Positions 3,486 through 22,283 are shown, numbered from the stretch's first letter. The stretch: 64,000 nucleotides of DNA from Gammaproteobacteria bacterium (GCA_965221955.1 CBDCTA010000029.1:128001-192000), one strand, 5' to 3'. Program-made: numbers and translations. Notes: generated from the letters alone by a model not told the origin.

Positions 3486-4220
3486 ATGCCTCGACCTACC
3501 AAAGCAAAATTTACTGAATTTAATTTACCTGCTGGTCGCATTATTGCAAAGAAGTATGAGGTGCTTTCTAAGCTAGGTGGCGGGTTTGAAGGTGAAGTGT
3601 ATAAAATACGTGAAATTAGCACAGGGATTGAGCGCGCAGCCAAATTATTTTATCCCAATCGCAATGAAAAGGATCGAGCGGTAAAGTTTAATGCACAAAA
3701 GCTGCATAAACTCAGACAATGTCCAATACTGATTCAGTACCACACAAAAGAGAATTTTGTTTTTAAAAGAACTCCAGTTACGGTTCTAATATCAGAATAT
3801 GTTGAGGGACAACTGCTTTCTGAATTTATTAAAAGCTTTCCTGGTAAACGTCTTACCCCTTATCAAGCATTGCATTTGCTCTATGCATTAACTCAAGGTA
3901 TCGAGTGCATACATAGCCTGAATGAATATCACGGAGATTTGCATTCCGATAATGTCATCGTCAATAAATTTGGCTTAGAATTTGATTTGAAATTAGTTGA
4001 TTTGTTTTCTGCAAAAGAACCTAAACATGAAAGCCGTAGATTTGATATTTTAACTTTGATTCAAGTGTTTCATGAGTCATTAGGTGGAGCTAAGCACTAT
4101 GCAAAGCATCCTGATCCAATCAAGTATATTTGCTGTGGCCTAAAATCAAATTTAATTTTAAAAAAATTTAAAACTGCAGGCCAATTACGAAGACATATTG
4201 AAAGCATGGAATGGTCATGA
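3486..4220 (+). CDS. Short Ser/Thr protein kinase-like protein
   Basis: LGGGFEGEVY glycine loop, AAK lysine, HGDLHSDN catalytic loop, DLF in place of DFG. Confidence 0.75.
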   Translation: MPRPTKAKFTEFNLPAGRIIAKKYEVLSKLGGGFEGEVYKIREISTGIERAAKLFYPNRNEKDRAVKFNAQKLHKLRQCPILIQYHTKENFVFKRTPVTVLISEYVEGQLLSEFIKSFPGKRLTPYQALHLLYALTQGIECIHSLNEYHGDLHSDNVIVNKFGLEFDLKLVDLFSAKEPKHESRRFDILTLIQVFHESLGGAKHYAKHPDPIKYICCGLKSNLILKKFKTAGQLRRHIESMEWS

Positions 4221-4255
4221 ATTTTGCGAAAAAATTAGAAATACCTAATTTCAAT

Positions 4256-4377
4256 ATGTCCGCTTACGACCCAAAGTGTGAGTCCATGGATGGGCGAATA
4301 TGAGGTGCAACAAGGATGTTGCTTCAGATTCAATATTTCTTTTATTAGAATGTCCGCTTACGACCCAAAGCGGACAT
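4256..4377. repeat. Palindromic repeat unit 1 (truncated B-type copy at 4256, complete B-type copy at 4350)
   Basis: ATGTCCGCTTACGACCCAAAG at 4256 and ATGTCCGCTTACGACCCAAAGCGGACAT at 4350-4377, with GATTCAAT in the spacer. Confidence 0.85.
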
Positions 4378-4461
4378 TAAGTCTTACAATATTTCATGTT
4401 ATTACATAGTAATATTTTCTAACGCTTTAACCTTCTTGCTTCTCCATCTACTTCATTTATA

Positions 4462-4475
4462 TTGATGTATATCAA
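4462..4475. promoter_or_regulatory. Canonical FNR/ANR box
   Basis: Perfect TTGAT-GTAT-ATCAA about 70 nt upstream of the ATG at 4548. Confidence 0.7.
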
Positions 4476-4547
4476 TAGACATCAGGTTTAACGTGTTATA
4501 AGAATTTAAGCATCAAGGGATAAGGGGATTGTTTATGGAGAGCAACT

Positions 4548-4807
4548 ATGAAACTCAATCCAATTATTCTGGGAATCTCGAGCGCAATCACAACCGCAAT
4601 TTTATGGGTCATCTGTAGTTTACTCGTTGTCACCTTACCAGGGTTCATGATGAAATGACAGCAGGGATGATGCATAGTGACATTACTACAATGAATTTCA
4701 CACTAACTTGGCCAGGGTTTATTTGGGGTCTTGTAGCTTGGGTTGTATGCGCAGGTATAGCTGGTTGGTTAATTGCAATAATTTATAATCGATTGTTACC
4801 AAAATAA
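4548..4807 (+). pseudogene. Small membrane protein (DUF5676-like) with one frameshift
   Basis: RBS GGAG, then MKLNPIILGISSAITTAILWVICSLLVV. Adding one A at ATGAAATGACA continues MTAGMMHSD..LTWPGFIWGLVAW..IYNRLLPK*. Confidence 0.6.
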
Positions 4808-4899
4808 CGATGTGATCAAGAGATTGTAAATCTGGATGTCTAGTTTTATTTTATGTGTTTGATGTTAATTTCAAATTTAGTATTAAGGAGAATACTGTA

Positions 4900-5037
4900 A
4901 TGCACGGTGATGGTGGATTTTTCACGCATTGGGGATTTGGGTTTGGTCATTGGTTTCTTGGTGTTTTGCTATGGTTTATTGTCATACTTGTAGTTGTACT
5001 TTTAATAAGAACGGTATTTAAGACTGATAAACATTAA
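4900..5037 (+). CDS. Small His/Gly-rich single-pass membrane protein
   Basis: AAGGAG RBS before ATG 4900, then MHGDGGFFTHWGFGFGHW followed by a TM helix. Confidence 0.6.
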   Translation: MHGDGGFFTHWGFGFGHWFLGVLLWFIVILVVVLLIRTVFKTDKH

Positions 5038-5059
5038 GTAGGCTATCAAAAACATACTC

Positions 5060-5575
5060 ATGAGAATCCCTGAGAAAAATGTAAATAAAACTGCATGGTA
5101 TTTACGTCCATTTTTTTGGAATCAACGTAGAAAATATGGGCAAGTGCTAACCCCAGCGCTGCTTTGGGCAAGGGTGCCTAAGCTTTTTATGGCAGTAGCC
5201 ATTTTATATGGTGAATTGCTATAAAAAACAGTCCATTAGACCCTGTCTGCGTTCTTTGGTAATTCACAAATAAATTGGTGTCACTGTTGAGCTTAATTCC
5301 GCCACATTAGCAGAAGCGAGCTGGTTCGAAAATATTCAGAAGCCATTGGAAAGAAAGTGAACTGTTTAATGACAAAGAAAAATGGTAAATGGAATAATGT
5401 AGAAGCGATTACATATTCATCAACAATAGTGCTTGAATTAACGAAACCGTCTGCTAGAGTTCTTCAGTGAAGATGCGGTAGTGGAGCTCACTGGCTCATC
5501 GCCTTTCAAAGTCTATCTAGTAAATTTACATTCGCTCAGGGGTTTTGTAAGCTTCCTCAAGAAAAAGTTCGGTAA
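5060..5575 (+). pseudogene. Carboxymuconolactone decarboxylase/AhpD-family gene with multiple indels
   Basis: Intact start MRIPEK..WYLRPFFWNQRRKYGQVLTPALLWARVPKLF. Later fragments (SPLDP, QINWC, HWKESELF, EDAVVELTG, QGFCKLP) lie in shifting frames. Confidence 0.7.
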
Positions 5576-5618
5576 ATAAAAGCTGCAAATAACTAGTTCA
5601 CTTCATAGATTAGATTGA

Positions 5619-5712
5619 ATGTCCGCTATTGCCGAAAACTCAAACTTAAAGGGGAATTTAAGGTTGGATCTCAAAATAACTAATATGACTGCTTACGACC
5701 CAAAGCGGGGAT
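5619..5712. repeat. Palindromic doublet unit 2 (degenerate)
   Basis: ATGTCCGCTATTGCCGAAAA at 5619, GGTTGGATCTCAA in the spacer, ATGACTGCTTACGACCCAAAGCGG at 5685. Confidence 0.75.
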
Positions 5713-5959
5713 TTAATTTCTTAATTTCTCAAGTTTTCCTGTTCTTGTTTATTCATACGATTTTAATGGAAATAAACTTGGTGATACATGTGAAAAAGCT
5801 ATTAGGATGAATTAAATTCTGGGCTTCTCAGCTTCCTAGTTATGAGAACTATCTTGGTAGAGCCATCAGGCATGTATTTTTTAACTATGAGGGCCTTGAA
5901 ACATAGCTAGATACGATTGTATAAAAACGTAATTAAGCGCCAAGATTTAACATTTTATT

Positions 5960-6247
5960 TTGATTCATTTGGCTGCCCTACCACATTTTGAAAGCTATAA
6001 AATTTCCGAGAGAATAAATAGGAAAGTTTATGATAGTCAGGAGCAAACCGATAACTTGAACAGAGATATACTTGATATGTTAGCTCCCGTAAGACGTTGG
6101 AGTATATGGGTAGAAGAAAAAGATAAAACAGATTTAATTTTATTTAGATATGAAGGTATGTGGAGACTTTTTTTGAGAACAAAAATTACATATCCACAAA
6201 TGGAAAAATCAAGGGAGCTATCGCTGGTAGTAGGTTTAGACCTTTAA
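5960..6247 (+). CDS. Hypothetical protein, probably the 3' part of a disrupted cargo gene starting near 5746
   Basis: ORF track 95 aa lying between repeat units 2 and 3. No recognisable motif. Confidence 0.3.
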   Translation: MIHLAALPHFESYKISERINRKVYDSQEQTDNLNRDILDMLAPVRRWSIWVEEKDKTDLILFRYEGMWRLFLRTKITYPQMEKSRELSLVVGLDL

Positions 6248-6266
6248 TATGTAACAACATAATGAA

Positions 6267-6367
6267 ATGTCCGCTATTGGCCGTAAGCGGACAAAAAAAG
6301 GGACGCAATGTGTTGGAATCAATAAATTACAAACATAAAATGTCTGCTAACGACCCAAAGCGGACAT
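6267..6367. repeat. Palindromic doublet unit 3
   Basis: ATGTCCGCTATTGGCCGTAAGCGGACA (6267), TGTTGGAATCAAT, ATGTCTGCTAACGACCCAAAGCGGACAT (6340). Halves start 73 nt apart. Confidence 0.9.
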
Positions 6368-6389
6368 TAGGTATATTTAAAAAATTATC

Positions 6390-6725
6390 ATGAGCATCTT
6401 AATAGTACGTATAACCTGCTTTTTTTGGGCGATTGCTTGTTTAGTAATTTTAGTTTTATCTTACGGGTCAACTCCAGTCACTAAACTTTCTACTGAAATG
6501 GCAATGACTGCAATTGAAGAAAAGTATATAAATTTTGCATCTATGTCCGATAAACAGCGAGAAAATTATAATTTTCTTTCAAATTGGGTGCGTGGGAATG
6601 ATAAAGGTTTTAAAAATTCCTCAATGTTTCGTCATAAACTTATCTTGATTGTGACTCTAGGTTCATTATTGATTTGCTTTTATATTGCTTTTTTCATGCG
6701 AAATTCAAACAAAGCTAATAATTAA
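6390..6725 (+). CDS. Hypothetical two-TM membrane protein (cassette-like cargo)
   Basis: 111-aa ORF filling almost the whole gap between units 3 and 4. Confidence 0.6.
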   Translation: MSILIVRITCFFWAIACLVILVLSYGSTPVTKLSTEMAMTAIEEKYINFASMSDKQRENYNFLSNWVRGNDKGFKNSSMFRHKLILIVTLGSLLICFYIAFFMRNSNKANN

Positions 6726-6740
6726 AATTAATTGAATTAG

Positions 6741-6841
6741 ATGTCCGCTATTGGCCGAAAGCAGTCATAAATTGAGACGAACGAGGTTGGATTCAATGCT
6801 TTATACGTTCAAAATGTCAGCTAACGACACAAAGCGGACAT
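6741..6841. repeat. Palindromic doublet unit 4
   Basis: ATGTCCGCTATTGGCCGAAAGCAGTCAT (6741), GGTTGGATTCAAT, ATGTCAGCTAACGACACAAAGCGGACAT (6814). Offset 73 nt. Confidence 0.9.
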
Positions 6842-6872
6842 TGACGTTTTTCGACATAAGATTTTAATCTTT

Positions 6873-7421
6873 GTGTTAATGAGCAAGATTATTTCTATAT
6901 GTATTTTGATTTACCTGCTTACAGGTTGCACAGTACCGTGGTCATTTGATGCATCTGATAAACCATATGCTAAAAATATGACAAATCAATGTTATCAATT
7001 AACTAATGATGCTTTTCTAATACAACCGTGTGAACCGCACCCCTCCATAGCAGATTCAACATTGATAGATCCAGAAGGTTTTGAGCCACACTGCACTCCA
7101 CCAAATATAAGTGTTTATAATAAAGACCCTAGTAAGTGGAATAATATTTGTGATGAGTCTAAACGAACTTTATGGACAATAGGTTGCCGTTACAGAGTTT
7201 CAATGGCTCTTCCTAAGGGCTCAAAATTTAAAGTTACTAGAATAATTAATATGACGGGTGGAGGTCCTAGATTTTGGAAAGTAAGTGCTACCTTAGTAAA
7301 TTCTAAAGATGAATTTGAAATTTTTGGTTCATGGCTAAATCCAAGATTTTTTGCCTCAATTAATCCCAAACAAAATTTAGAAATTCTTAATAAATATGCT
7401 AAAGCCTGTACAAACTACTGA
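6873..7421 (+). CDS. Hypothetical Cys-rich lipoprotein (cassette-like cargo)
   Basis: Lipobox LLTGC. Fills the gap between units 4 and 5, and its TGA lies inside the left arm of unit 5. Confidence 0.7.
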   Translation: MLMSKIISICILIYLLTGCTVPWSFDASDKPYAKNMTNQCYQLTNDAFLIQPCEPHPSIADSTLIDPEGFEPHCTPPNISVYNKDPSKWNNICDESKRTLWTIGCRYRVSMALPKGSKFKVTRIINMTGGGPRFWKVSATLVNSKDEFEIFGSWLNPRFFASINPKQNLEILNKYAKACTNY

Positions 7422-7518
7422 TCGCTATTGACCGAAAGCGGACATAAAATAGGATCAAATAGGTTGGATTCAATCTCATACAAGAGGAAAATGTCTGCTT
7501 ACGACCCAAAGCGGACAT
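7418..7518. repeat. Palindromic doublet unit 5
   Basis: CTGATCGCTATTGACCGAAAGCGGACAT (7418), GGTTGGATTCAAT, ATGTCTGCTTACGACCCAAAGCGGACAT (7491). Offset 73 nt. Confidence 0.9.
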
Positions 7519-7629
7519 TCAAATTAGCTAAAATTTGCTCTTTGTCAATTTTAAGAGACAATATGATCCTATTATTATAGTTATGTGGCCTTCAATTTTG
7601 AGCGGCCGATAACTAAAGGAGGTGCTAAG

Positions 7630-8012
7630 ATGAAACTTAAAATCATTTTGGTCATCAACGCTATTGTCGTAGCAATATTTGGAATTGCATTAGTGCTTAT
7701 ACCAGCACAGCTTCTGTCCTTGTATGGCATCACGGTGGACACCCATTAAAATATATGGCGCAGCTATTTGGGGCTGCTCTTATTGGATTTGCCGTGTTGA
7801 CCTGGTCGGCCAGAAACTCCAGTGATTCCGGTGCGCGTAGGGCAATTATCCTTGCATTATTTGTGACCGCTGCAATCGGCTGTATTGTGGCTGTACTTGG
7901 TGCACTTGCAGGATTTATGAATCCTCTTAGCTGGTCAACAGTAGCAATTTACTTGTTTTTTGCAGCAGTCTTTGGATATTTTCAATTTGCTCGACCAACA
8001 ACTTCGTCGTGA
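7630..8012 (+). pseudogene. Four-TM membrane protein with one frameshift near 7741
   Basis: Strong RBS AAAGGAGG, then MKLKIILVINAIVVAIFGIALVLIPAQLLSLYGITVD. A frame change leads into PLKYMAQLFGAALIG.. (track ORF 7755-8012). Confidence 0.7.
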
Positions 8013-8105
8013 TGAGATACTCAGTTTAAAAAGCACAGAGCTACAATAACATCAATTACGAAAAATGAGGTCCTAGCGGATGCTTAAATGACACGTATCA
8101 ATTAG

Positions 8106-8134
8106 GCATCCGCTATTGGCCGAATAGCAGACAA
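8106..8134 (+). repeat. Single A-type palindrome copy
   Basis: TCCGCTATTGGCCGAATAGCAGACA. Confidence 0.75.
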
Positions 8135-8389
8135 AATAGCATAATATTTTCGATTTATGTTTGCGGATTGTGGGGGCAGAGCATCCCACGAATTTGTACT
8201 TGCTTTTCTGCGTTTCCTCAATCCATGCGATCTCAACGCACTCATATTATTTGCTTTGGGTAATGTTCTGTTTCAGTCCCTCGAAATCGAACTTAGTTCC
8301 GTTTACCCCACGCACCGACTACTCTAGTAAGACATTTAAAATTGCAAAAGGTTTAGTGTATTTATTTTCTTTGAGTACAGTAATATTGC

Positions 8390-8417
8390 ATGTCCGCTTA
8401 TGGCCGAAAGCGAACCT
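8390..8417 (+). repeat. Single A-type palindrome copy
   Basis: ATGTCCGCTTATGGCCGAAAGCGAACCT. Confidence 0.75.
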
Positions 8418-8437
8418 TTTGATCCTGAGTTATATAG

Positions 8438-8776
8438 CTATCCAGTGCTCCACGATCTTGGTCTTTTCATTCCTGCAATTTTGCAAGCTTGTTTGACGTA
8501 CCCATATGGAAATAATTTAAATAACTGTTTTTTTGCTTGCTTTCCATAACTAAGCTCATCAGAAATATATTTAATTACGTAGCGAGAGTCTGGAGCGGTT
8601 AAGTGATCATTGTAATAATCACGCATGAATTGAATGATTTTCCAATGCTCAGGTGAAAGATCTAGCTCTTCCTTGCTAGCAAGAACTCTAGCGTATGCCT
8701 CATTCCACTCTTCTGGGTCAATTAGATAGCCTTCATTATCAATGTTAATAGGCATTGAGGATATCTGCTGAGACAT
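8438..8776 (-). CDS. TusE/DsrC-family protein lacking the C-terminal cysteine (RspA-like)
   Basis: DNEGYLIDPEEWN, LSPEHWKIIQFMRDYY, LFPYGYVKQACKIAGMKRPRSWSTG. Confidence 0.85.
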   Translation of the reverse strand: MSQQISSMPINIDNEGYLIDPEEWNEAYARVLASKEELDLSPEHWKIIQFMRDYYNDHLTAPDSRYVIKYISDELSYGKQAKKQLFKLFPYGYVKQACKIAGMKRPRSWSTG

Positions 8777-8962
8777 TTGAAATGCCTTTGGCTGGGATTA
8801 GTTAGAATTTAAAGTTATAAACTGATAAGAAAATTTACAAATACAGTAATAGCAGCCGCTATAATAAATACTACCCAAAATGCGGTTACTATTGGATTTG
8901 TGTGGCTATTTTCTAAATGTTTTCCACTCATGATTAATCCTTTTCAATTCAAATTGAGTTAA

Positions 8963-9331
8963 TTACCTGCAGAGCACATCATCACGATGCTTTTCGATAG
9001 CATCGATAACTTTTGTGGTCTGATTTTTACCAATATTAAGGTCAGATAAGGACTGTTTTACACATTCCATCATGGCATCAACATGTTCATCATTAAGTCC
9101 TTCTTCTACTGCCCCTTTGTGCGCTCGACGCATATCTTTTCCCAAATATAAAGACGGGCCGCCAAAAATGTAGGTTAAAAAAGCAGTCATTTTTCTTTGT
9201 TGTGATTCAACATCTGTTTTTTCAAAAAAATCCTTAATGCGGTCATCATTTAATATATGCACATATAAATAATATGCTGCCTTTTCAACAGTTTCTTTCC
9301 CGCCAAGTTCATCATAAAGGGTTTGATCCAT
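8963..9331 (-). CDS. Group I truncated haemoglobin (GlbN-like)
   Basis: TLYDELGG, DDRIKDFF, FLTYIFGGPSLYLGKDMRRAH. Confidence 0.9.
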   Translation of the reverse strand: MDQTLYDELGGKETVEKAAYYLYVHILNDDRIKDFFEKTDVESQQRKMTAFLTYIFGGPSLYLGKDMRRAHKGAVEEGLNDEHVDAMMECVKQSLSDLNIGKNQTTKVIDAIEKHRDDVLCR

Positions 9332-9415
9332 TATTCTTTTCTTTCTATAAAGTTAAATTAATAAGTCGGATTTTTGAGTTAACTTCTATCTAAAATAGAC
9401 ATAGATTGAATAGAA

Positions 9416-10090
9416 TTAAAACTTCCTACCTATGCTTACAAAAAATACCCATGGGTCGATATCGATATCCACGTCTCTGCGTACGCCATTGGTTTTCAAT
9501 GTAGCATCGGCATCAATGTCTACATACCAAAGTGCAGTGTTAAAAAACCAATTTTCATTTATAGAAATATCTGTGCCGATTTGGGCAGCTAGCCCCCAAG
9601 AGTCATCAATATCAAGTTTTGTGTCACCGCCAAGCGCGGTTTCGAGCGAGGAAGAAACGTCTTCATCTGGAAAATGTGTGTAATTAAACCCTGCTCCAAT
9701 ATAAGGATGGAATTTTGCGGATCCATTAAAATGATACTGTAGTGATAAAGTAGGTGGAAACACATCTACATCTGCAATTTTTCCTAATGCGCTTAGACCA
9801 TCCTTGCCTTTTAAATCATGTGTAGATGGGGTAACACCTAAAAGTTCAATTGCAAATCTCGAAGTCAGCATATAACCGATTGTGAAACCTAATGTGACGT
9901 CATTATCAACACCCACTTCGGTGTTAGGTATTCCATCCACATCATTACTACTGTCGTTGGGCTCTATAAATGCGGGGCCGATTCTGGCAAACCAAGTGCC
10001 TTGATCGTAGGCATAACTTGCTGGTGTGATAGAAATGAAAATTATTAACAATAAAAATTTATAATTATTTAAGTGCGCTATTTGGATCAT
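9416..10090 (-). CDS. ompW: OmpW/AlkL-family outer-membrane beta-barrel
   Basis: Signal peptide, PPTLSLQYHF, FHPYIGAGFNYT, DSWGLAAQIG, IDPWVF and a terminal Phe. Confidence 0.88.
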   Translation of the reverse strand: MIQIAHLNNYKFLLLIIFISITPASYAYDQGTWFARIGPAFIEPNDSSNDVDGIPNTEVGVDNDVTLGFTIGYMLTSRFAIELLGVTPSTHDLKGKDGLSALGKIADVDVFPPTLSLQYHFNGSAKFHPYIGAGFNYTHFPDEDVSSSLETALGGDTKLDIDDSWGLAAQIGTDISINENWFFNTALWYVDIDADATLKTNGVRRDVDIDIDPWVFFVSIGRKF

Positions 10091-19811: not shown

Positions 19812-20226
19812 GTGTTTTTTATTATCGCTTCAATGGGTTCTTCAGCGGTACTACTATTTTCAGTACCGCACAGTTCACTTACTCAACCTTGGAATTTAAT
19901 TGCAGGACATATCATCGCTGCAATTGTGGGCGTAAGTTGTGTCAAACTTTTTGGCTCTGAACTCATCGCTGCAGCAGTGAGTGTAGGCGTAACCATGACG
20001 GCATCTCATTTAGCACGCTGTGTTTCATCCTCCTGCGGGCGCAACAACTATTTATGCTGTGATTGGTGGTGCACACGTACATGAAATTGACTACCTTTAT
20101 GTTATTGCACCTGTGCTTATAAACACATTAGTTATTTTCGCAGTAGCAGTTTTATTTAATGGATTGTTTGGCTGGAGGCGATATCCAAAATATATGAGTA
20201 ACAGCAGAGAGGTTGTTTCGGATTAA
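19812..20226 (+). pseudogene. HPP-family membrane protein, apparently 5'-truncated and frameshifted
   Basis: ASMGSSAVLLFSVPHSSLTQPWN in the first ORF and HPPAGAT in the second frame. Extra base near 20020-20025. Confidence 0.75.
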
Positions 20227-20243
20227 AGTTTCTCAAACTCAAT

Positions 20244-20271
20244 ATGACTGCTTTCGGCCAATAGTGGACAT
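20244..20271 (-). repeat. A-type palindrome copy in reverse orientation
   Basis: Reverse complement ATGTCCACTATTGGCCGAAAGCAGTCAT differs by one base from the copy at 6741. Confidence 0.85.
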
Positions 20272-20448
20272 CCATATATCTAGGTTATACCGTATATCAA
20301 AAAATAACTTTTTCCTGTTTTAAATCAGAGCAATTTTGCTAGTTATATGTGTATATTCCACTTATTAAATAGTATGCATGAACATAACTAAATGGCCTGT
20401 ATTCCTCTGTAATACTTTAGGTCAAATATACTTAACAGGTTTATAAAT

Positions 20449-21402
20449 ATGGAAAATAAGGATGTGAAGCTCGTGAGTGTAGATAATGTTGTGGACAATA
20501 CACTTGAATCTTCATTAGATATGGATAGCTCAGCAGAGTTAATAATGAATACTGCTGAAGATGTGTTAACTAAAGAAGAACTACTTGAGCTGCAATCATC
20601 ACGTGACTTTTTTGGTCTACTAAAAAAGAAAGATTATAGCCTTAAAAAATTTAAAAAAGCCCTTGCATATGAAGAAGATCTACGTTTACTACAAGGTGAA
20701 CTGGTAAAACTACAGCGTTGGGCACAAGAAGAACAACGTCGTATTGCGATAATTTATGAAGGGCGTGATGCTGCTGGAAAAGGTGGAACCATACGACGTT
20801 TTGTAGAACATATGAATCCTCGCGCGATGCGAATTGTTGCATTACCTAAGCCAAGTGAAGATGAAGTGGGTCAATGGTATTTTCAGCGTTATGCAAAACA
20901 ATTGCCAAACAAAGGTGAAATCGTGTTTTTCGATCGTAGTTGGTATAACCGTGCGGTGGTGGAACCCGTCAATAAATTCTGCACAGAAAAGCAATATAAA
21001 CAGTTTATGCGTCAAGTGCCGGAATTTGAGCACATGCTCTATGAAGATGGTATAGATCTAATAAAATTCTGGTTTTCGATATCTAAAGAAGAACAGCTTA
21101 AGCGATTTAAGTCGCGTGAAACTAACCCTTTAAAAGTATGGAAACTTAGCCCAATCGATAAACGCGCACAAGAATTATGGGACGACTATACGAAATACAA
21201 GGAGAAGATGTTTAGTCATACACATACTACATTTAGCCCCTGGATTATTGTACAAGCAAATAGCAAAAAATCTGCACGACTAGAAAGTATCCGCCATGTG
21301 CTCTCGAACTTTGATTATGCTGGAAAAGATAGTGCCATCAGTCTTCTGCCTGACCCAAATATCATCATGCGTTATCATCGTTCAACTACGCATATCGACT
21401 AG
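20449..21402 (+). CDS. ppk2: Polyphosphate kinase 2
   Basis: EGRDAAGKGG, QWYFQRY, FDRSWYNRA, WKLSPID. Confidence 0.95.
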   Translation: MENKDVKLVSVDNVVDNTLESSLDMDSSAELIMNTAEDVLTKEELLELQSSRDFFGLLKKKDYSLKKFKKALAYEEDLRLLQGELVKLQRWAQEEQRRIAIIYEGRDAAGKGGTIRRFVEHMNPRAMRIVALPKPSEDEVGQWYFQRYAKQLPNKGEIVFFDRSWYNRAVVEPVNKFCTEKQYKQFMRQVPEFEHMLYEDGIDLIKFWFSISKEEQLKRFKSRETNPLKVWKLSPIDKRAQELWDDYTKYKEKMFSHTHTTFSPWIIVQANSKKSARLESIRHVLSNFDYAGKDSAISLLPDPNIIMRYHRSTTHID

Positions 21403-21448
21403 ATCCTTGAATAACTGAAATTTTATATAAAAATTTTGTTATCTTTGA

Positions 21449-21476
21449 GTGTCTGCTTTGGGTTGTAAGCAGACAT
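21449..21476 (-). repeat. B-type palindrome copy in reverse orientation
   Basis: Reverse complement ATGTCTGCTTACAACCCAAAGCAGACAC, close to the copy at 7491. Confidence 0.8.
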
Positions 21477-21539
21477 TTTAAATAAGAATTAAATCAGTTG
21501 CGGCATGAATGCTGTAACTCTTATTCGCTATCCCTATGC

Positions 21540-22283
21540 TCACCAATAACTCTCTGTAGTGATATGCCCAGGGCTGCGGCGTAAATTTTTCTTAAGTCCT
21601 TTTTCTTTTAACGCATTACGTGTATCAACCAACATGTCAGGATTACCGCACATCATCACTTGAGAAAACGTAGGTGATATTTGTAATTTAGTCTTTTCTT
21701 CTAAACTCTTATTTTCAATTGCAGCAGGTATGCGACCAGGCATTGCAAAATTAGTTTCTTCTCGACTTACAAATGAAACCATTTGGAATCGGTCTTTAAA
21801 TTCTTTCTCAAAATTTGCAATGGTATTTTTATATGTCAGTTCATTTGCAAACCGAACAGCATGCACTAAAACAATATTTTCAAAACGATGCCATACTTCT
21901 TCAGATTTAAGAATGGATAAAAAAGGTCCAAGAGCAGTGCCAGTTGCCATCATCCACATATCACGGCCTTCTGGTACTTCGTTTAATGTAAAGAAACCAT
22001 TGACCCGTTTATCAATGTAGATTAAATCACCAGCACGTAATTCTGCGAGTCTTGGTGAAAGCGGGCCTTCAGAAACTGTGATGGAGTAAAACTCTAGCAG
22101 TGATTCATGTGGTGCATTTACAAATGAGTAAGGTCGTCCAACGATTTGGTCACCAATTTCTAAGCCAAGTCTTCCGTATTGGCCCGCAGTAAACGGGTCA
22201 ATATCTGCTTCTATTTGAAGAGAATAAAGCAAATCTGTCCAATGCTTATTCTCGATAACTTTTCCTTTTACCCAATTACTCAT
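21540..22283 (-). CDS. fpr: Ferredoxin/flavodoxin-NADP+ reductase
   Basis: RPYSFVN, GPLSPRL, MATGTALGPFLS, MCGNPDM, and C-terminal ESYW. Confidence 0.93.
   Translation of the reverse strand: MSNWVKGKVIENKHWTDLLYSLQIEADIDPFTAGQYGRLGLEIGDQIVGRPYSFVNAPHESLLEFYSITVSEGPLSPRLAELRAGDLIYIDKRVNGFFTLNEVPEGRDMWMMATGTALGPFLSILKSEEVWHRFENIVLVHAVRFANELTYKNTIANFEKEFKDRFQMVSFVSREETNFAMPGRIPAAIENKSLEEKTKLQISPTFSQVMMCGNPDMLVDTRNALKEKGLKKNLRRSPGHITTESYW

Follow-up and report, generated by a model that had tools for sequence, protein, structure and literature searches.

Integron gene cassettes (IntI, attI and attC; sedentary chromosomal integrons and CALINs) are among the described systems closest to the locus analysed here. 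The window, a stretch of 64,000 nucleotides, contains between positions 4256 and 8417 an array of six cassettes, bordered by 28-nt palindromes that come with two kinds of loop, A and B. As in integrons, the cassettes are co-oriented, mostly single-ORF, promoterless and a few hundred bases long, and between them lies a ~100-nt imperfect palindrome that folds as one bulged single-stranded stem. The repeat contains stop codons, the function of the cargo is largely not known, and the content varies between strains while the flanks stay put. In contrast to integrons, the carriers here are without an integron integrase, the units lack AAC..GTT (R''/R') ends, and each half of a unit is a 28-nt palindrome by itself. 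An integron array runs from attI to a full attC; here B comes first and A last. A third repeat, O, encloses the arrays as an inverted pair, and instead of one platform per genome there are many small ones (46 clusters).

In the dif modules of Acinetobacter plasmids (PMC7399989, PMC6449649, PMC13141974), genes lie between inversely oriented 28-bp pdif sites and XerC/XerD are used. The likeness to these extends to 28-bp sites of two arms and a centre, a geometry of roughly inverse neighbouring sites and alternating modules, the lack of a dedicated recombinase gene in or beside the modules, and reshuffling between replicons. The A/B arms, however, are not dif-like, the elements are found on the chromosomes of marine Gammaproteobacteria, a conserved spacer of 45-55 nt takes the place of every second "module", and each module holds one ORF in strict orientation. 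REPINs and BIMEs with their RAYT (PMC3337134) also consist of two inverted short palindromes and a spacer, ~100 nt in all, with many copies per genome and single palindromes as remnants. Most carriers here have no RAYT, and the Y1 genes that do exist have no adjoining hairpin; REPINs and BIMEs lie between conserved genes, whereas A/B copies bound variable genes, and the same A/B sequence occurs across very different taxa and GC contents. The O repeats, inverted pairs of ~65-70 nt around a short or long interior, resemble MITEs and other TIR-bounded carrier elements, although no target duplication is evident in 16 O pairs, no transposase of the families tested was found, and the interior is a cassette stack.

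Architecture of the array

The arms of the palindromes are ATGTCCGCT and AGCGGACAT; the A loop is ATTGGCCGAA and the B loop WACGACCCAA. Read from the sequence, the B loop and the reverse-complemented A loop agree at 6 of 10 positions. The 28-nt palindromes start at 4350, 5685, 6267, 6340, 6741, 6814, 7418, 7491 and 8390, with degenerate copies at 4256, 5619 and 8106. Ten matches with at most three mismatches are found in the window against 0.03 expected by chance (0 of 100 shuffles reached ten); eight of them fall within 4350-8417, the other two at 20244 and 21449. The features are as follows.

4256..4276, + strand: truncated B that keeps the 5' arm, the loop and AAG and runs straight into O'; the same junction occurs at C10 3756, C14 4192 and C29 609 kb
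4277..4349, + strand: O' bracket repeat of the array's left end, two short hairpins with a GGA loop (nhmmer match C29 132277-132338)
4350..4377, + strand: first B site, forming the left limit of the block that varies between strains; directly behind it the sequences of the two strain variants part
4378..5618, + strand: cassette 1, several small ORFs
5619..5712, + strand: degraded A-B doublet, 66-nt spacing (nhmmer match C29 133614-133720)
5713..6266, + strand: cassette 2 (ORF 5960-6247; no Pfam family)
6267..6367, + strand: A-45 nt-B doublet, which in single-stranded form makes one long imperfect stem (-20.7 kcal/mol, z -5.6)
6368..6740, + strand: cassette 3 (ORF 6390-6725, 111 aa; no Pfam family)
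6741..6841, + strand: A-45 nt-B doublet
6842..7417, + strand: cassette 4 (ORF 6873-7421; stop codon within the next A site)
7418..7518, + strand: A-45 nt-B doublet
7519..8105, + strand: cassette 5 (ORF 7631-8012, split by a frameshift near 7741)
8106..8133, + strand: degenerate A site, where homology with the G004 cassette ends
8134..8389, + strand: cassette 6, without a convincing ORF (82% identity to G004:C21)
8390..8417, + strand: terminal lone A site, right limit of the strain-variable block
20192..21543, - strand: second window locus, a lone O-bracketed cassette (O 20192-20233, A 20244-20271, B 21449-21476, O 21485-21543) with a 317-aa ORF on the + strand between A and B

The predicted extent of the array stands, with the addition of the truncated B fused to the ~70-nt O' at its left end, which had been overlooked; the lone A at its right end and the second lone cassette were likewise missing from the earlier account. 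The fixed spacing of the A/B units was confirmed, the two halves starting 73 nt apart in each of the three clean doublets and 66 nt apart at 5619/5685. Also as predicted, cargo ORFs nearly fill their gaps (ORF 6390-6725 in the gap 6368-6740), and the TGA of ORF 6873-7421 (7419-7421) lies in the arm of the hairpin starting at 7418. The product of this last ORF matched only itself among 5.8 billion proteins. A frameshift near 4650 breaks the DUF5676 ORF of cassette 1. At the frameshift places of cassettes 1 and 5, a contig of run X2 has one extra C after 4650 and one of run X5 an extra C after 7741.

The genome (G000) contains 167 hairpins (85 B and 82 A) in its 46 clusters. Eleven arrays hold 109 of them (65%) in 49.7 kb of 2.69 Mb, 1.8% of the DNA, and eight of the eleven keep a single orientation throughout; arrays start with B and end with A, and lone cassettes occur at many loci besides. 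The motif is thus clustered, with neighbours that vary, rather than scattered genome-wide between invariant genes. There are 29 doublets in this genome and 45 when the complete genome G010 is added. In the two genomes together, the longest ORF is co-oriented and runs from B to A in 56 of 59 B..A cassettes (median 480 nt, coding fraction 0.9), starting ~30 nt past B and stopping ~10 nt ahead of A or inside it; 14 of these 56 have a stop codon that overlaps A. The A/B borders exist, and ORF orientation and packing are strongly biased. Segments other than B..A (A..A, B..B and others) make up 36 of the 95 between hairpins, which counts against a cassette system.

Convergent O pairs number 17, of which two are "empty", enclosing 54 and 92 nt. 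The O' variant is present in five copies and its hairpin 1 shows compensatory changes. The O hairpins, with GGA in the loop, are 82.5% paired as compared to 66% in shuffles (0 of 500 shuffles as high).

Cassette exchange between strains and species

The strain comparison is between two variants co-assembled in the same assembly, at two loci (C10/C29 and C14/C23). Outside the window interval 4378-8415, C10 and C29 are 98.7-99.7% identical; within it they have 1.4 kb versus 4.0 kb of unrelated cassettes. The right border of this block lies 9-24 nt beyond A and not within it, again an observation against a cassette system. At the xerD locus, C14 and C23 have ~99% identical flanks around different cassettes (4 kb versus 12.4 kb), and a C14 block of 1.03 kb lies between two A sites where C23 has a single A.

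Across species the same pattern is seen. Past the stop codon of the kinase, G014 and G011 have orthologous O-bracketed platforms, which hold one and two cassettes respectively, with other cargo in each case. Another species, G004, has a copy of cassette 5 with 94% identity that extends from within B as far as the final base of A; the copy has other flanks, with unrelated DNA directly adjoining, and the core kinase gene of the two genomes is only 79% identical. A cassette of the C5 array matches a lone O-bracketed cassette on C17 (77%), a C5 cassette matches C26 (86%), and further cassettes recur in other species adjoining B sites. Species share cassettes that are more alike than their core genes, and from strain to strain as well as from species to species one set of cassettes gives way to another at the terminal sites. 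The prediction that cargo would differ while the flanks stay syntenic therefore proved correct at two loci of this assembly and again across species. Since this comparison was positive, the motif is clustered, its neighbours vary and attC-type ends are missing, the locus is a cassette array and not an integron.

The A and B sites and their possible roles

We favour an integron-like cassette system with a recombinase supplied in trans, in which the A/B palindromes would be the borders of mobile single-gene cassettes, and give this reading a probability of about 0.5. A cassette would consist of a conserved leader (GGTTGGAATCAAT..AAA), B, ~30 nt with a ribosome site, one ORF, A and a short variable tail. 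Head-to-tail stacking would generate the A-spacer-B doublets, and the stack would sit between the inverted O pair at fixed chromosomal places. A and B are putative core sites of the trans-supplied recombinase, each with two ~10-bp inverted arms and an asymmetric 8-10-bp centre. As the centres of A and B differ, only like sites could recombine: A with A and B with B, and not the B and A around one gene. Such recombination would permit a cassette to be excised or inserted along with one doublet, and anything that lies between a B and an A to be exchanged by double crossover. The doublet may instead work in the manner of attC, folded from a single strand into one hairpin. Swappable single-gene arrays that have neither the enzyme nor the sites of integrons point to an undescribed way of gene capture.

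The arms of A and B are nearly invariant, while copies within one genome are overall ~75-90% alike. Their stems have systematic mismatches and show no covariation in either fold, so that neither the single long stem nor the two separate hairpins is favoured by it; near-invariant arms that do not covary are as expected of putative protein-binding sites. Half-sites break at both loop edges, and since these junctions sit in end modules copied to several loci, they do not represent independent recombination events.

The main rival, possible though doubtful, is that hairpins, doublets and O are passive REP/BIME-like repeats piling up in flexible islands. Cassettes would then be swapped by RecA-dependent homologous recombination, for example after DNA uptake, with the ~100-bp doublets and 70-bp O as portable homology, and half-sites would come from hairpin processing by host nucleases. 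The doublet is indeed built like a REPIN or BIME, a dedicated enzyme was found in no genome searched, the borders of the variable blocks are not exactly at one base, and the A..A indel between C14 and C23 fits recombination between direct repeats as well as site-specific recombination. Random insertion between genes would not be expected to yield one ORF per unit, the co-orientation seen in 56 of 59 cassettes or stops in A, and the G004 homology, bounded inside B and at the last base of A by unrelated DNA, also speaks against it. The likeness of copies within a genome is poor homology over 28-100 bp. Identical 25-mers of the hairpin occur in contigs from 32 to 66% GC, whereas REP families are usually lineage-specific and vertically inherited (10.1101/2022.05.22.493013).

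A role in RNA is improbable. B and A would be 5' and 3' stem-loops that stabilise or separate the cistrons of a long transcript, O would be a leader whose GGA-loop hairpins bind CsrA, and the variability would be ordinary island turnover. The positions of B ahead of the start codon and A past the stop codon, the paired O hairpins with their compensatory changes and the presence of a csrA gene are consistent with it. Against it are the mismatched, non-covarying stems of A and B and the absence of any Rfam match in 3500-9500. A T run follows only one hairpin in 4000-8800, the degraded copy at 5689 (among six terminator-like sites), and for this reason intrinsic terminators (GC-rich stem and T run) were rejected. 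Strain and species differences that start and end at the sites would also go unexplained; an RNA role could coexist with one in DNA.

Candidate enzymes and taxonomic distribution

In line with the predicted lack of an integrase, RAYT or transposase, neither a tyrosine recombinase nor a Y1 transposase was found in the window, and the only match on C29 (C29:3369) lies outside it. The recombinases of this genome are limited to XerC, XerD (in two copies, one for each strain variant), a P4-like integrase and, next to a terminase gene, a large serine recombinase. In G010, a complete genome, the set consists of XerC, XerD and a single integrase. Across all carriers checked, no recombinases other than XerC and XerD are shared. 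The genome carries a canonical dif of its own at C4 59807, with which, by inspection, A and B have neither arm in common, and dif identity was rejected for these sites. None of seven transposase families tested was found. At 79 metagenome loci, 4 of 66 motif-adjoining ORFs of at least 200 aa encode mobile-element enzymes, of four different families. In the contigs covered, neither an excised circle nor a hybrid site was seen, and hairpin-to-hairpin joints there are repeat artefacts. No recombinase tracks the motif in the genomes or metagenome loci searched, which counts against the favoured cassette system. Of the predicted gene-capture array with a trans-acting recombinase, the array has held up, while the expected recombinase or HUH/RAYT gene co-occurring with the motif was found in none of the genomes searched.

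Single-strand transposition is an unlikely explanation. Leader, B, cargo, A and tail would form a non-autonomous IS200/IS605 or PATE element with subterminal hairpins, inserted beside existing copies by an HUH enzyme from elsewhere or from an unbinned replicon. Both ends have the same subterminal stem, ~30-45 nt in from the left and ~10-25 nt in from the right. Many loci hold lone units, the doublet is well folded in single-stranded form, and the lack of evident target duplication around 16 O-bracketed units agrees with this mode. The Y1/RAYT model PF01797, however, has no match in this genome and matches in only 6 of 31 family genomes, leaving 25 without Y1, including the hairpin-rich complete genomes G010, G014 and G019. 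None of nine family Y1 genes has an A or B hairpin within ~2 kb, and lone units are always within O brackets at orthologous sites and not at scattered targets. Assignment to IS200/IS605-type PATE mini-elements is not supported, the subterminal hairpins being present and the Y1 transposase absent from most carriers; nor is REPIN/RAYT identity, where the inverted palindromes and spacer fit and the missing RAYT, clustering, variable neighbours and 32-66% GC range do not. The array may alternatively be, as the original prediction also offered, a stack of mini-elements with hairpin ends.

A divergent integron, with unusual attC clusters served by a canonical integrase missing from the assemblies, is very improbable. 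Chromosomal integrons are similar in how the array is built, in cassette size, in orientation bias and in their orphan cargo, and in five of six doublets the single strand forms a long, imperfect stem that contains bulged bases (-14.9 to -22.2 kcal/mol, z -2.4 to -6.4). The integron integrase model TIGR02249 has no match above the cut-off in this genome and exceeds it in only 4 of 31 family genomes, none of them the hairpin-rich complete G010, G001, G014 or G019. No A or B hairpin lies in the 12-15 kb around two of these integrase loci, nor in 3.9 kb around all four. The predicted lack of attC ends was borne out: none of 45 doublets, read on either strand, combines AAC close to its 5' end with GTT close to its 3' end. 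The tested marks of integron integrase/attC, RAYT and dif are absent.

The A site is present in 14 of 14 genomes of the genus, in 4 of 10 from other genera of the family and in 1 of 16 from other families, and a reversed control pattern gave 0 matches in all genomes searched. Metagenome contigs of 32-66% GC contain A and B sites, including doublets 70-84 nt apart. The carriers are uncultured marine bacteria.

Sites and cassettes of the array

Ten copies of the 28-nt palindrome are located within window 4256-8418, as found from the sequence and with a repeat finder. The arms, ATGTCCGCT and AGCGGACAT, enclose a 10-nt loop of type A (ATTGGCCGAA) or type B (WACGACCCAA), and 6 of the 10 positions of the B loop agree with the reverse-complemented A loop. 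At up to three mismatches, the window has 10 copies where 0.03 would be expected, and none of 100 shuffles held as many. Three 108-nt units (window 6261, 6735 and 7412) are doublets of A, spacer and B with halves that start 73 nt apart; a degraded unit (5619/5685) has a spacing of 66 nt. The gaps are filled by ORF 6390-6725 and ORF 6873-7421, the latter stopping inside the next hairpin. Ends of the attC type (with AAC close to one terminus and GTT close to the opposite one) occur in 0 of 45 doublets, and window 3500-9500 has no Rfam match at E up to 1. The original prediction of doublets with these two spacings, of two gap-filling ORFs, one with its stop codon inside the repeat, and of units devoid of attC ends is therefore correct. 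It had missed the following features, two of which involve a third repeat, O, or its variant O' at the left end of the array.

Window 4256-4276 / O' 4277-4349: truncated B fused to O', ahead of the first B
Window 8390: lone terminal A, closing the array
Window 20192-21543, reverse orientation: second lone O-bracketed unit, comprising O, A (20244), a 1.2-kb interior, B (21449) and O

The lone unit carries a 317-aa ORF (20449-21402) opposed to the usual B-to-A direction. In the array, frameshifts split two cassette ORFs, the DUF5676 gene 4549-4807 (at 4650) and ORF 7631-8012 (at 7741). A contig of sequencing run X2 has one extra C at the first of these places and a contig of run X5 has one at the second, and the frameshifts may be assembly errors or strain-specific pseudogenes.

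The window corresponds to C29:128001-192000 of the assembly. The assembly (2.69 Mb, 29 contigs, 96.6% complete) contains 153 hairpins at up to three arm mismatches and 167 (85 B, 82 A) at up to four with a typed loop; the 167 form 46 clusters. Eleven arrays hold 109 hairpins in 49.7 kb, or 1.8% of the genome, and are uniformly oriented throughout in eight cases; outside the arrays, 42 hairpins stand in pairs or triples and 16 are solitary. Clean doublets (n = 29) can be aligned over their full length. The right half of the spacer is conserved (GGTTGGAATCAAT...AAA) and the left half is variable, with a 10-nt insert whose presence or absence gives spacings of 59, 72-73 or 82-83 nt. In a profile search, lone B sites bring the right spacer half along, and lone A sites just a few bases past the hairpin. 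An IHF site in the spacer was rejected, as the consensus is present in just 3 of 45 doublets. The idea of an uptake sequence was rejected as well, with 131 of 139 exact 9-mer arms lying inside hairpins.

Folding of single-stranded DNA gives one long bulged stem in five of six doublets. In the alignment, 87.5% of cells are paired in the two-hairpin fold and 88.9% in the long-stem fold; neither fold shows covariation above shuffles in the A and B stems, and systematic mismatches are present. The A and B stems are not constrained as a folded strand, unlike O. The O repeat is about 65 nt long, surrounds lone B..A pairs as an inverted pair, and forms two short GGA-loop hairpins. Pairing in hairpin 1 is 82.5% (32 copies) versus 66% with partners shuffled (0 of 500 shuffles as high), and one pair position is A-T 12 times, G-C nine times and C-G six times. 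This pairing excess and these compensatory changes place O under constraint as a folded strand. A profile search located 61 copies of O in the genome, including 17 convergent pairs. Their interiors measure between 54 nt and 12.5 kb; two 'empty' pairs stand at the short end, single cassettes come next, and the 12-kb array on contig C23 stands at the long end. No target duplication is evident around the 16 pairs examined. An insert of about 105 nt within the loop of some B sites likewise consists of short hairpins with GGA in every loop. GGA hairpins of O or of the B-loop insert are located at:

Window 4277-4349
Contig C17, 40200-40500
Contig C22, 41200-41500
Contig C22, 168190-168450
Contig C3, 17920-18140

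We take these hairpins to have the look of CsrA/RsmA binding sites, and a csrA gene is present at C2:164402. The O bracket may double as a regulated leader. An RNA-level role for the repeats is possible, and it could coexist with a role at the DNA level.

Cassettes were surveyed in 14 loci of this genome and of G010, a complete genome with many hairpins, which gave 95 segments between hairpins (120-3000 nt), 59 of them B..A and 36 with other combinations. The longest ORF runs in the B-to-A direction in 56 of the 59 B..A segments, which have a median length of 480 nt and a coding fraction of 0.9. The cassette ORF starts 30 nt past B and stops 10 nt ahead of A, and 14 of the 56 co-oriented cassettes have a stop codon that reaches into the opening bases of A. 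Among the 42 cassette ORFs of three arrays, 14 have a Pfam family and 28 have none; the families are M23 and M48 peptidases, GNAT, OsmC, HSP20, globin, Na/H exchanger, HAD, Macro, Rieske, Sel1, TPR, DUF2314 and DUF5676. No recombinase is found among these 42 ORFs. The cassette 4 protein matched itself only among 5.8 billion proteins in a word-based search of limited reach.

Turnover within and between species

The assembly contains two variants of several regions. The contig pairs C10/C29, C14/C23, C1/C25, C3/C19, C6/C24, C8/C18, C11/C26 and C12/C13 are 94-99.8% identical over kilobases, which indicates that two strains were binned together. Contig breaks frequently coincide with arrays. At the kinase locus, C10 and C29 (the contig of the window) are 99.7% identical up to window 4378 and 98.7% from window 8415 on; between these positions C10 has 1.4 kb with four different cassettes and C29 has 4.0 kb with six. 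The two are alike on the left through O' and B, beyond which they diverge at once; on the right, both A and the tail (9 versus 24 nt) differ. The C10-type variant exists in another data set as well: in a contig of run X3, the right flank is joined to an A site and the C10-type tail. Hairpin-to-hairpin joints in run contigs were regarded as repeat artefacts, and the lack of cover of cassette interiors in runs X1 and X3 as no evidence. At the xerD locus, the flanks of C14 and C23 are 99.0% and 99.5% identical, and the cassettes occupy 4 kb versus 12.4 kb with one 1.5-kb block common to both. Here a 1.03-kb block lies between two A sites in C14, and C23 has a single A in its place. The comparisons show that the cassette architecture is sharply bordered and that turnover at its borders is real.

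All 14 other genomes of the genus carry the kinase gene that adjoins the array (70-80% identity). In two of them (G014 and G011), the same O-bracketed platform again comes after the kinase stop codon, and the DNA beyond the right O is also the same; the platform holds one cassette in G014 and two in G011, both unlike the cargo in the window. The DsrC/TusE-like gene at window 8438-8776 adjoins the terminal A. G014 and G011 lack a counterpart and have the right O at the orthologous place; the gene may be cargo itself or a later arrival. Cassette 5 is 94% identical to a cassette of another relative, G004, and the kinase genes of the two genomes are 79% identical. The likeness runs from inside B at CGACCCAAAG to the final base of A; beyond it, G004 continues with an O repeat and the window with cassette 6. 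A cassette of the array on contig C5 recurs on C26 (86%), and one recurs as a lone O-bracketed unit on C17 (77%). C5 cassettes also recur in G006, G004, G002, G013, G011 and G014 (70-87%), with an A or B site directly adjoining in three loci.

Candidate enzymes and the mode of exchange

The genome, at 96.6% completeness, contains no integron integrase above the cut-off, no Y1 transposase, and no match to the IS110, Transposase_31, rve, TnpB-type, DDE_Tnp_1 or reverse transcriptase families (PF01548, PF04754, PF00665, PF07282, PF01609 and PF00078). Its recombinases are XerC, XerD (once per strain variant), a P4-like integrase accompanied by island genes, and a large serine recombinase that adjoins a terminase gene. 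Each xerD gene adjoins dsbC about 1 kb from an array. Integron integrases are present in 4 of 31 genomes of the family, none of them a hairpin-rich complete one, and no A or B site lies near these integrases. Y1 genes are present in 6 of the 31, with hairpins near 0 of 9 such genes. G010 has just XerC, XerD and one integrase. Metagenome loci have 66 large ORFs adjoining the motif, four of which encode mobile-element enzymes, each from a different family. From the family searches, the relatives and the metagenome neighbours, no candidate enzyme emerges.

Membership among XerCD/dif-like sites was rejected; the canonical dif (C4 59807) is unlike A and B. A small hairpin cluster (C4 63577-65790) is located some 4-6 kb away from this dif. 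Insertion sequences were rejected as drivers, since the two repeats of more than 1 kb between C26 and C29 encode no transposase; their products are a membrane hydroxylase-like protein and a solute-binding protein. The hydroxylase-like stretch (1.16 kb; C26 24490-25645 and C29 202067-203222) is 99.7% identical in its two copies, one of which has an O repeat some 0.8 kb away. Self-comparison also located tandem repeats at C22 1-1926 and C29 662144-663592, with periods of about 339 and 294 nt.

From the near-invariant arms, the asymmetric centre in two kinds, the geometry resembling tyrosine-recombinase core sites, the half-sites broken at both loop edges, and the retention of the site in hosts that differ widely in base composition, we infer site-specific recombination at A and B. 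The heterospecific B and A around each gene would forbid simple excision; exchange of like with like would be allowed, which fits the replacement of whole blocks from the first B to the last A. Site-specific recombination is weakened by the half-site junctions being part of end modules copied as wholes, and by A..A and B..B neighbours being common. It is weakened further by the finding of no enzyme in the genomes searched and by the inexact right border of the variable block, both of which speak for the main rival, that passive repeats are reshuffled through homologous recombination. A model of single-strand transposition is possible too.

The site-specific reading may extend to an undescribed gene-capture system widespread in Proteobacteria. 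Single-gene cassettes between heterospecific 28-bp A and B sites, in many O-bracketed chromosomal platforms, would be swapped both within a species and across species, through the action of either a recombinase from a family so far unconnected with cassettes or a co-opted host enzyme. We put the probability of this at roughly one in three (0.35). If true, it would be a natural machine for two-site cassette exchange that works independently of integron integrases, and a new recombinase with two heterospecific sites would be a useful genetic tool.

Relation to known systems and distribution

The array behaves most like an integron array, and the geometry of the sites is like that of dif modules; the system lacks tested defining features of integrons, REPIN/RAYT and dif modules. 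It is filed among the site-bounded gene cassette arrays, with a fair chance of being a new system in its own right. Papers on cassette arrays bounded by such palindromes were not found in the accessible parts of the literature searched. To our knowledge, integrons are the sole well-understood bacterial device for collecting and reshuffling single promoterless genes; dif modules are a second case, still puzzling. The system would stand beside them as a third architecture that has sites of its own, lacks an integrase and occupies dozens of small platforms in each genome. It occurs throughout a genus of uncultured marine Gammaproteobacteria and on contigs of widely differing GC. With base-level borders around strain-variable genes, turnover of the flexible genome becomes directly measurable in metagenomes.

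The A site (up to three mismatches) is present in 14 of 14 genus genomes, 4 of 10 from other genera of the family and 1 of 16 from other families; the reversed A pattern, used as a control, gave 0 in all 41. Named records with the site are uncultured marine Gammaproteobacteria, some labelled Thiotrichales, and a few of quite different taxa. An exact 25-mer is present in at least 128 metagenome stretches, and the 79 readable loci among the matches listed have a GC content of 32-66%, which poses the question of the protein that reads a 28-bp palindrome conserved over this range. GC-rich metagenome contigs have B-type sites too, with doublets 70-84 nt apart. Viral contigs gave the A pattern at two loci, both GC-rich and no lead, and the B pattern at none.

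Look-alike hairpins, which share the arms and have a similar loop, are present in 33 enterobacterial plasmid records, and a GNAT gene of a Klebsiella plasmid stands between a pair of them. In E. coli, look-alikes also follow an orphan gene of a prophage region (280 of 5426 genomes). The loci of these look-alike hairpins are:

L161, 4001-4780
L162, 4001-4065
L171, 5018-5046
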